From Patescibacteria group bacterium (GTDB taxonomy: Bacteria; Patescibacteriota; Patescibacteriia; SG8-24; DYFX01): a stretch of DNA of 64,000 bases. The stretch spans positions 20,699-84,698 of the forward strand of contig JBBTWH010000005.1 in NCBI GenBank assembly GCA_038062835.1. The letters are read 5' to 3'. Positions 54,458 to 55,261 of the stretch are shown in pieces. The notes under the pieces were generated by a model that saw nothing but the letters and a program-made list of their open reading frames with translations, was not told the DNA's origin and did not search any database. The stretch's first letter is position 1; every line of letters begins with the position of its first letter. The position numbers and the translations under genes were made by a program.

Positions 54458-55261
54458 TTATTTCTTCTTGGAAGCCTTTTTCTTCTTCGGCTTCTCTTCC
54501 CCTTCTTCGGAGGCTTCTTCCTTCTCTTCCTCCTCCGCTTCCTCGGCGGCCGCGGCCTTGGCCGGAGCCTCGGCGTTCACGGCGGCGAGCAGGGCGAAGT
54601 GGTCGATGAGGATCTTGGCGGACGAGCGGACGGCCTCATCGGCGTCCACGGTGCCGTCAGTCTCGATCGTGAGCATGAGCTTGTCGAAGTTGGTGATCTG
54701 TCCGACACGGACGTCTTCGACGCGATAGCCGACGGAGCGGATGGGGCTGTAGAGGGCGTCGATGGCGATGGTGCCGAGCTCGCCGCGATCCTTGCCGCGC
54801 TCCTCGGTCGGGACGTAGCCGCGGCCCTTGGCCACGGTGATTTCCATCTCGAGTTCGGCGGACTTATCGGTCAGCGTAGCGATGTGGAGGTTCGGGTTGG
54901 CGACCTCGACGTCGGAGTTCGGCGCGATGTCCTTGCCAGTGACCTTCTTTTCGCCCTTGGCGTGAAGCGTCAGCTTGACCGGCTCGTCGGAGAAGACCTT
55001 CAGGCGGAGCTGCTTGAGGTTCAGGATGATCTCCAGCACGTCTTCCTTGACGTTCGGGAGTGCCTGGAACTCATGCGAGCCGCCCTTGATCTTCACGGCG
55101 GTCACTGCGGCGCCCTGGAGCGAGCTGAGGAGCACGCGGCGGAGGGCGTTGCCGACGGTGTGACCGTAGCCGTGGAAGAACGGTTCCATGGTGAGCACCG
55201 ACTCGTTGTCGCGCTCGCCGGGGATGATTTCGATCTTCGACGGAAGAAGGATGTCTTCCAT
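54458..55261 (-). CDS. rpoA: DNA-directed RNA polymerase alpha subunit, N-terminal domain only, with acidic/Lys-rich tail
   Basis: Alpha-NTD dimerisation and beta/beta'-assembly domain present. The protein ends at about 230 aa of homology then EAPAKAAAAEEAEEEEKEEASEEGEEKPKKKKASKKK. rplQ follows immediately. Confidence 0.9.
   Translation of the reverse strand: MEDILLPSKIEIIPGERDNESVLTMEPFFHGYGHTVGNALRRVLLSSLQGAAVTAVKIKGGSHEFQALPNVKEDVLEIILNLKQLRLKVFSDEPVKLTLHAKGEKKVTGKDIAPNSDVEVANPNLHIATLTDKSAELEMEITVAKGRGYVPTEERGKDRGELGTIAIDALYSPIRSVGYRVEDVRVGQITNFDKLMLTIETDGTVDADEAVRSSAKILIDHFALLAAVNAEAPAKAAAAEEAEEEEKEEASEEGEEKPKKKKASKKK

Follow-up and report, generated by a model that had tools for sequence, protein, structure and literature searches.

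The window, i.e., the whole stretch of 64,000 nt that was analysed, contains a cluster of genes on the minus strand whose first gene is infA (IF-1, 57107–57355; PF01176). It is followed by rpmJ (56848–56961), which encodes an L36 of 37 aa according to its translation and has an equally placed counterpart in relatives, rpsM (S13, 56448–56846; PF00416), rpsK (S11, 55974–56426), rpsD (S4, 55335–55964; PF00163 and PF01479), rpoA (54458–55261), rplQ (L17, 54105–54455; PF01196, E = 2.7e-31), rplM (L13, 53738–54103; found at the same place in relatives), and rpsI (S9, 53218–53733). Two of the ribosomal proteins carry N-terminal extensions, namely S11 a Lys-rich one of about 40 aa (PF00411 covers residues 41–149) and S9 a Lys/Ala/Pro-rich one of about 49 aa (PF00380 covers residues 50–171). 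The gene order rpsM-rpsK-rpsD-rpoA-rplQ places rpoA at the canonical position of the bacterial alpha operon. RNA genes were not found in the window by Rfam or ARAGORN. An identical RpoA protein in public data (P0001) is annotated as 'DNA-directed RNA polymerase subunit alpha [Patescibacteria group bacterium]', and the lineage of the window belongs to the Patescibacteria/CPR, with Uhrbacteria as the nearest named relatives.

The rpoA gene has an ATG start and a TAA stop (54460–54458) and encodes a protein of 267 aa, as was evident from the ORF list and the sequence. The Pfam search yielded PF01193 at residues 26–222 (E = 2e-24) and PF01000 at residues 56–172 (E = 1.5e-32), and PF03118, the alpha-CTD, was not matched anywhere in the 267 aa even at E = 0.1. 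A phmmer search against all PDB chains aligned residues ~17–235 to the alpha NTD of B. subtilis, M. tuberculosis, T. thermophilus, and E. coli, with E-values of 1e-53 to 1e-59 against the solved structures and 1e-59 as the best value. Past residue ~235, this search aligned the low-complexity linker only. The ORF, the Pfam matches, and the alignment to the reference proteins, which was confined to the NTD and the linker, thus all bear out the claim of an earlier note on this DNA that the alpha subunit lacks its C-terminal domain. The NTD and the operon position place the protein in the RpoA family, although the alpha-CTD that is typical of the family is absent. In the AlphaFold model, which was built on 15 relatives, a helix of residues 207–228 is the last folded element, and residues 231–267 have pLDDT values below 50. 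The end of the homology had been put at about 230 aa, which was right in essence, and the end of the folded domain can now be corrected to about residue 228.

The NTD (residues 1–228, 54578–55261, minus strand) comprises the dimerisation and insert domains and is the platform for beta/beta' assembly. It has 62 invariant columns across the 15 relatives, including the region of the GNALRRVLLSS motif, and this conservation suggests, together with the fact that a second rpoA homologue was not noticed in the window, that the alpha2-beta-beta' core is assembled as usual. The remaining 39 residues, NAEAPAKAAAAEEAEEEEKEEASEEGEEKPKKKKASKKK, form a tail that is predicted to be disordered. It consists of an acidic, Ala/Glu-rich linker (residues 229–255, NAEAPAKAAAAEEAEEEEKEEASEEGE, 54497–54577, minus strand; pLDDT < 50) and a basic C-terminal tip (residues 256–267, EKPKKKKASKKK, 54461–54496, minus strand). 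The tail reads exactly as quoted before, acidic and then lysine-rich, with 13 acidic and 10 basic residues and a net charge of about −3. The ATG of rplQ lies at 54455 and begins at the third base past the rpoA stop codon, so that the two genes are separated by 2 nt and an alpha-CTD of about 80 aa cannot fit between them, as had been noted.

The absence of the domain from this gene might be due to a frameshift or a mis-assembly, or the alpha-CTD might be encoded separately as part of a split gene. Short proteins consisting of nothing but PF03118 do in fact exist in public data: a CPR alpha-CTD profile returned 61 proteins from a set of 5.8 billion, all of them at most 121 aa long. However, all five of these that were checked on long contigs were located between an rpoA-NTD ORF and rplQ. 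The five stand-alone candidates were therefore rejected, because they are rpoA genes of other lineages that are broken in situ by a stop codon or a frameshift. In the window itself, tblastn with the alpha-CTDs of E. coli and B. subtilis and an HMM of 47 alpha-CTDs, some of them from CPR, gave only noise in the six-frame translation; the same was true for six loci of relatives. Taken together, the evidence that no alpha-CTD is encoded separately in the window, in the loci of relatives, or among the short public proteins that were checked is strong, albeit not absolute.

Truncation by a sequencing error was addressed by comparison with relatives. The survey of RpoA among relatives that had been proposed in the earlier note was carried out, and the 120 closest clusters (at 90% identity) all encode proteins of 238–297 aa that contain PF01000 and PF01193 only. 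Four independent assemblies, one of them the closed 1.17 Mb genome CP129476.1, share the gene order short alaS, epimerase (in three of the four), infA, rpmJ, rpsM, rpsK, rpsD, rpoA, rplQ, rplM, and rpsI, and three of them also have the 2-nt junction between rpoA and rplQ. Furthermore, rplQ begins 1–101 nt past the rpoA stop codon in all 31 alpha-CTD-less loci from GTDB species in which it was located. The architecture of the window thus occurs in more than 100 independent clusters and in a closed genome, and a frameshift or truncation is ruled out by the conservation and the rplQ junction. The explanation by an artefact or a split gene is largely refuted, and we consider it highly improbable. 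The best explanation is that the gene encodes a complete and functional alpha subunit and that the alpha-CTD was lost during evolution. For annotation, this means that rpoA genes for 230–300 aa in these lineages are complete, and that short metagenomic "proteins" with PF03118 only stem in most cases from broken rpoA gene calls.

The contigs and chromosomes of the relatives have sizes of 0.65–1.19 Mb, and the alpha subunit ends shortly past the NTD in this small-genome lineage. The alanyl-tRNA synthetase of the window is also short, as stated in the earlier note; it has 621 aa with tRNA-synt_2c and tRNA_SAD and is devoid of DHHA1/C-Ala, and in four relatives its length is 614–621 aa. The proposed streamlining of information-processing proteins thus holds insofar as the alpha-CTD is absent and AlaRS is shortened in relatives as well. 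It does not account for the tail, which seems to be more than a leftover of streamlining, because its basic tip is as constrained as the fold and has a template in common with AT-hook tails (see below).

To describe the distribution of the alpha-CTD, one genome per GTDB species was scanned, which yielded 80 loci, and the rpoA ORF of each locus was tested for the domain. It was absent in 33 loci, all from CPR, and present in 7 CPR loci and in 40 of 40 non-CPR loci. The loci without it carry the labels Uhr-, Falkow-, Buchanan-, Veblen-, and Magasanikbacteria, Moranbacteria (three of four), and many unnamed Patescibacteria; the named lineages presumably correspond to class ABY1 and a part of the Moranbacterales. 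The seven CPR loci that keep the domain include two labelled Saccharibacteria/Patescibacteria, Woykebacteria, Microgenomates, a "Parcubacteria group" MAG, one Moraniibacteriota, and one unnamed locus. The loss at the level of the lineage, which had been suggested on the basis of the window, was therefore found to be widespread across CPR lineages, but it is not CPR-wide, as several CPR lineages keep the domain.

A bootstrapped neighbor-joining tree of the NTD contained a Moran-like clade of five sequences with and three sequences without the alpha-CTD (100/100), and the three alpha-CTD-less sequences grouped together with a support of 79/100. The deep nodes of this NTD-only tree had a support of 5/100. 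Because the alpha-CTD-less trio is nested within the mixed Moran-like clade, the tree supports at least two losses of the domain, with an independent loss in the Moran-like group. A single origin of all alpha-CTD-less forms was considered as well and is contradicted by this independent loss.

Quantification of the constraint on the tail did not yield uniform results for its two parts. Across the 64 nearest clusters, the mean identity to the window was 83% for the tip, close to the 86% of the NTD. A codon alignment of five rpoA genes, which is a small sample, gave synonymous and nonsynonymous values per codon pair of 0.225 and 0.100 for the basic tip, 0.262 and 0.124 for the NTD, and 0.255 and 0.385 for the acidic linker, respectively. 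The lysines of the tip are maintained via synonymous exchanges between AAG and AAA, with few replacements. The comparison of these five genes shows that the basic tip is under purifying selection on a par with the folded domain. The acidic linker changes fast in sequence but not in its acidic character (median acidic fraction of 0.41 in 120 relatives).

A composition effect could in principle generate lysine-rich tails, and this possibility was rejected: lysine-rich tail ends occur at loci with 31 to 55% GC in addition to the window with its 63% GC, and the patch is nearly unique within the window. When a dense lysine patch was defined as at least 6 K in 12 residues, only the rpoA tip and the N-terminus of S11 (KKSKAAPRKKTK) were found in the window.

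The tails of alpha-CTD-less proteins fall into four types. A terminal basic cluster or Lys-rich end was present in 108 of the 120 close relatives, and the combination of an acidic segment and a Lys-rich end was found in 17 of 32 GTDB loci and in 32 of 57 distant representatives. Lysine-rich ends also appear again in the Moranbacteria subclade that lost the alpha-CTD independently. Ten of the 32 alpha-CTD-less GTDB loci have no tail at all (232–238 aa), and some proteins, e.g., those of a related subclade (P0066–P0070), have acidic-only tails. The tail must therefore be dispensable in some lineages. The fourth type is an acidic segment that is followed by a C-terminal K-K-K-R-G-R-P-K-K.

The latter motif is that of an AT-hook (PF02178; known from HMGA proteins). 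A search from a hook-bearing protein (P0129) led to 119 clusters that are named Komeili-, Kerfeld-, or Veblenbacteria or Parcubacteria group, with NTD identities down to about 48%. [KR]GRP[KR] was found within the last 30 residues in 78 of these 119 clusters, and 108 of the 119 had a basic end. The Pfam AT_hook model matched the motifs of the relatives at the right place with 7.9–13.1 bits, i.e., below the threshold of 17.4. Such a low score is expected for a single motif of 10 residues, and the assignment of the relatives' tails as AT-hooks therefore rests on the conservation of the motif itself. When the sequences were anchored on K-P-K, the consensus of the hook set was E-E-K-P-K-K-K-R-G-R-P-K-K and that of the window set was G-E-E-K-P-K-K-K-K-A-S-K-K-K. 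The template E-E-K-P-K-K-K is thus common to the tip of the window and to the AT-hook tails of the relatives. The G-R-P core is absent from EKPKKKKASKKK, and the protein of the window has K-A-S where the hook has R-G-R-P; hence, it is not itself an AT-hook protein. Judged from these alignments, the window and the hook set seem to share one tail, in which lysine, alanine, and serine have taken the place of the RGRP core in the window.

Because the tip is constrained and has its template in common with conserved AT-hook tails, a replacement of the domain seems more likely than its mere loss. In our tentative view, which we hold to be slightly less probable than its opposite, a large block of the CPR swapped the alpha-CTD for a disordered tether made of an acidic spacer and an AT-hook, the hook degenerated to a lysine patch in the GC-rich lineage of the window, and K-rich tails arose independently once more in Moranbacteria.

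The alternative to a replacement is that the tail is a neutral remnant, i.e., a former interdomain linker that persisted after deletion of the alpha-CTD, and that the polymerase needs no upstream contact. E. coli RNAP without the alpha-CTD still performs basal transcription, and the tail-less and acidic-only proteins described above indicate that an alpha subunit ending right past the NTD is viable. A possible source exists as well, as the interdomain linkers of CTD-bearing Moran-like relatives are Glu/Lys-rich. A remnant would not, however, be expected to have 12 terminal residues that are as conserved as the fold, with lysines kept through AAG/AAA changes, in a window with 63% GC in which dense lysine runs are otherwise almost absent. 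The RGRP core in 78 of 119 sister clusters with an NTD identity down to about 48% and the recurrence of K-rich ends in the independently alpha-CTD-less Moranbacteria subclade also speak against it. We therefore regard a neutral remnant as quite unlikely.

The promoters of the window bear on the same question. The earlier note had described sigma-70-like promoters with consensus hexamers, but the evidence for them is weak, because only 5 such sites were found in 20 kb compared to 2.5 ± 1.4 in shuffled sequences. One candidate, TTGACG-17-TAGACT with a TG, lies upstream of infA (57432–57460, minus strand) and was identified by a consensus scan, i.e., as a pattern match only. Its region from −38 to −60 has an AT fraction of 0.36 and is GC-rich. 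The AT content upstream of the −35 element was determined for six intergenic candidates with at least 9 of 12 matches, all of them predicted by pattern; it was 0.36–0.41, with one exception of 0.64, and thus mostly the average of the genome. UP-like AT-rich tracts at −38 to −60 were not found at these approximately six pattern-predicted promoters of the window, which is compatible with candidate promoters that have no UP elements (n of about 6). The lack of such tracts would also fit a remnant.

We propose that the tail is a flexible basic DNA tether that would keep a sequence-independent contact to upstream DNA, and that the docking of activators and the reading of UP elements were lost; the chances that this proposal is right or wrong seem about equal to us. 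The alpha-CTD, a textbook module of bacterial RNAP, recognises UP elements, contacts the minor groove of upstream DNA that is rich in A/T, and serves class I activators as a docking site. Minor-groove binding to AT-rich DNA is likewise well characterised for RGRP motifs with Lys/Arg flanks. Both alpha tails of a polymerase would act as flexible electrostatic tethers that touch the DNA upstream of the −35 element. RGRP-bearing tails would contact the minor groove with a preference for AT, and the tail of the window, from an organism with 63% GC and with K-A-S in place of RGRP, would make contact largely without a sequence preference. A probable role of the acidic linker is to keep the tip in solution or mobile, or to temper its affinity for DNA.

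With a linker of about 27 residues, the lysine tip could serve generic tethering, but not the docking of class I activators. Tethered alpha-CTDs have been reported to speed the binding of RNAP to non-promoter DNA about 10- and about 55-fold via a transient tethered intermediate, a route that was proposed to be general for small flexible DNA-binding tethers (bioRxiv 10.64898/2026.07.21.739884). It would be this sequence-independent, association-accelerating role that is retained by the tail, and the folded surface used for UP-element recognition and for the docking of class I activators would have been given up. Full-length CRP/FNR activators have been reported to be absent in CPR (PMC12531629).

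Several observations stand against a tether. The tail of the window has no GRP core and a net charge of about −3, and its acidic segment could neutralise the tip. The fact that 10 of 32 alpha-CTD-less loci are tail-less and that others are acidic-only also argues against it. At the candidate promoters, no AT-rich tract at −38 to −60 indicates a specific upstream target.

The tail could also be functional with a main partner other than upstream DNA; it could be an acidic mimic or auto-inhibitor, bind RNA, the ribosome, or a protein, or mediate clustering of the polymerase. The role of a nucleic acid mimic or auto-inhibitor has been proposed for the acidic disordered C-terminus of B. subtilis delta or for sigma region 1.1. 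The acidic block of the tail is longer than the basic tip and conserved in composition, acidic-only tails exist in the related subclade, and S11 and S9, which are encoded next to rpoA, have Lys-rich extensions of a similar kind with which they contact RNA. [quoted passage not shown] A main partner other than upstream DNA thus seems unlikely to us, and we favour the DNA tether.

A widespread bacterial clade without the alpha-CTD has a different basic apparatus for promoter recognition, which agrees with classical activators being scarce in CPR genomes. If the tip binds upstream DNA, the roles of the alpha-CTD would be separable, with generic tethering being kept and specific recognition as well as regulation being dropped. 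Nature would then have run an experiment in this lineage, with the outcome that the alpha-CTD is essential as a flexible tether to upstream DNA and not for the docking of activators, and the lineage would offer a compact natural test of the recent model in which a tether accelerates association. As far as literature searches show, the hook-bearing relatives would also provide the first AT-hook in a core RNA polymerase subunit.

The comparison with known systems starts with canonical RpoA (329 aa in E. coli, 314 aa in B. subtilis), which has the same NTD (PF01193 and PF01000) and operon position. In contrast to the protein of the window, it has a helix-hairpin-helix alpha-CTD of about 85 residues where the former has a disordered acidic/basic tail of 39 residues. 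Archaeal Rpo3 (D) and eukaryotic Rpb3 and AC40 are alpha-like proteins with PF01193/PF01000 that naturally have no alpha-CTD. However, 60 of 60 PDB matches listed are annotated as bacterial-type alpha, a few of them plastid-encoded. Because of these matches and the bacterial operon context, the protein represents a secondary loss within Bacteria and not an archaeal-type subunit. B. subtilis delta (RpoE) is another RNAP-associated protein with a charge-segregated disordered region, in which a short run of Lys is combined with a long acidic part. Unlike the rpoA tail, it is a separate subunit, its charge blocks have the opposite order, and it displaces nucleic acids.

Loss of the alpha-CTD has been described for Hodgkinia, Tremblaya, and Euglena chloroplasts, and one sentence of the same paper states, without data, that it "is also present in Parcubacteria" (PMC8321222). 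In the main text of the paper cited there for Parcubacteria (Nelson & Stegen 2015), the word 'polymerase' is absent. The bare loss is thus already published in one line. A description of the tail, its AT-hook variants, or their distribution in CPR was not found in open-access papers and preprints, which is absence of evidence. The alpha subunits of Hodgkinia, Tremblaya, and Euglena chloroplasts are similar in that they consist essentially of the NTD only and occur together with small genomes and few regulators. Their case was described as erosion, whereas a conserved charged tail, with an AT-hook in relatives, follows the NTD here.

The closest parallel to the tail itself is M. xanthus CarD, in which an unfolded DNA-binding domain, with an acidic segment followed by RGRP AT-hooks, is joined to an RNAP-binding domain (PMC4374960). 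By this comparison, the tail of the window is likewise an acidic-then-basic segment, predicted to be disordered, on an RNAP-associated module. CarD is, however, a separate factor that binds beta and has four hooks in about 140 residues, whereas here one hook or Lys patch is fused to a core subunit. Apart from the motif, there is no sequence homology, and the likeness is thus an analogy only. Garcia-Heras et al. are said to have found in 2009 that, in other myxobacteria, a histone-H1-like Lys-rich tail is functionally equivalent to that of CarD.

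In the gene calls of certain other metagenomic lineages, rpoA appears as an adjacent pair of ORFs, one encoding the N-terminal domain of the alpha subunit and the other only the alpha-CTD family PF03118. The pair is located immediately upstream of rplQ, and examples were found at three loci (L081, 5522-6330; L084, 2275-3279; L085, 2445-3357). At L084 (NCBI MAG GCA_964405805.1), the two ORFs are separated by a gap of 84 nt. Errors in the assembly, recoding of stop codons, or a true splitting of the gene could each account for these three cases.

The alanyl-tRNA synthetase encoded in the window (58548-60413, minus strand) has a length of only 621 aa. 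The catalytic domain is present, with the model matched up to position 437 of 552, and so is the tRNA_SAD editing-domain motif, while a DHHA1/C-Ala domain is absent. In the relatives, four independent assemblies with the same gene order around rpoA, the gene is found at the same position, and the enzyme has a length of 614-621 aa.

Lys/Ala/Pro-rich N-terminal extensions, e.g., EEGKKSKAAPRKKTKKS, are present in the ribosomal proteins S11 (about 40 residues; 55974-56426, minus strand) and S9 (about 49 residues; 53218-53733, minus strand). Apart from these two extensions and the RpoA tip (the conserved basic residues 256-267 of the alpha subunit), the window contains no Lys-dense stretches.

The top-scoring match of the region to a sigma-70-like promoter pattern, TTGACA-17-CATAAT (53098..53070, minus strand), precedes two overlapping small ORFs of 123 and 110 aa (52424-53098), which have an atypically low third-position GC content (GC3) and no Pfam match. 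A further low-GC3 stretch (about 23500-29000; 0.57-0.70 versus about 0.85 elsewhere) contains numerous AT-rich islands, ORFs spaced by long gaps, and the gene for a C-5 cytosine DNA methylase of 586 aa (24500-26260). This stretch has the appearance of acquired DNA, either a restriction-modification island or a mobile one. The mnmA-like gene (62708-63877, minus strand) is GC-rich apart from an AT-rich near-tandem repeat, CTTTTCATCTGATACTTTTTCATCAGATACTTTTTCAT (62825-62862), near the gap separating the PRC-barrel and C-terminal barrel domains. Neither tRNA or tmRNA genes nor Rfam families at the gathering threshold were found across the 64 kb (1-64000).

Lastly, an 872-aa protein (35058-37676, minus strand) combines G8 and CEMIP-type beta-helix domains. 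Such a domain arrangement is more familiar from surface or secreted proteins of eukaryotes.
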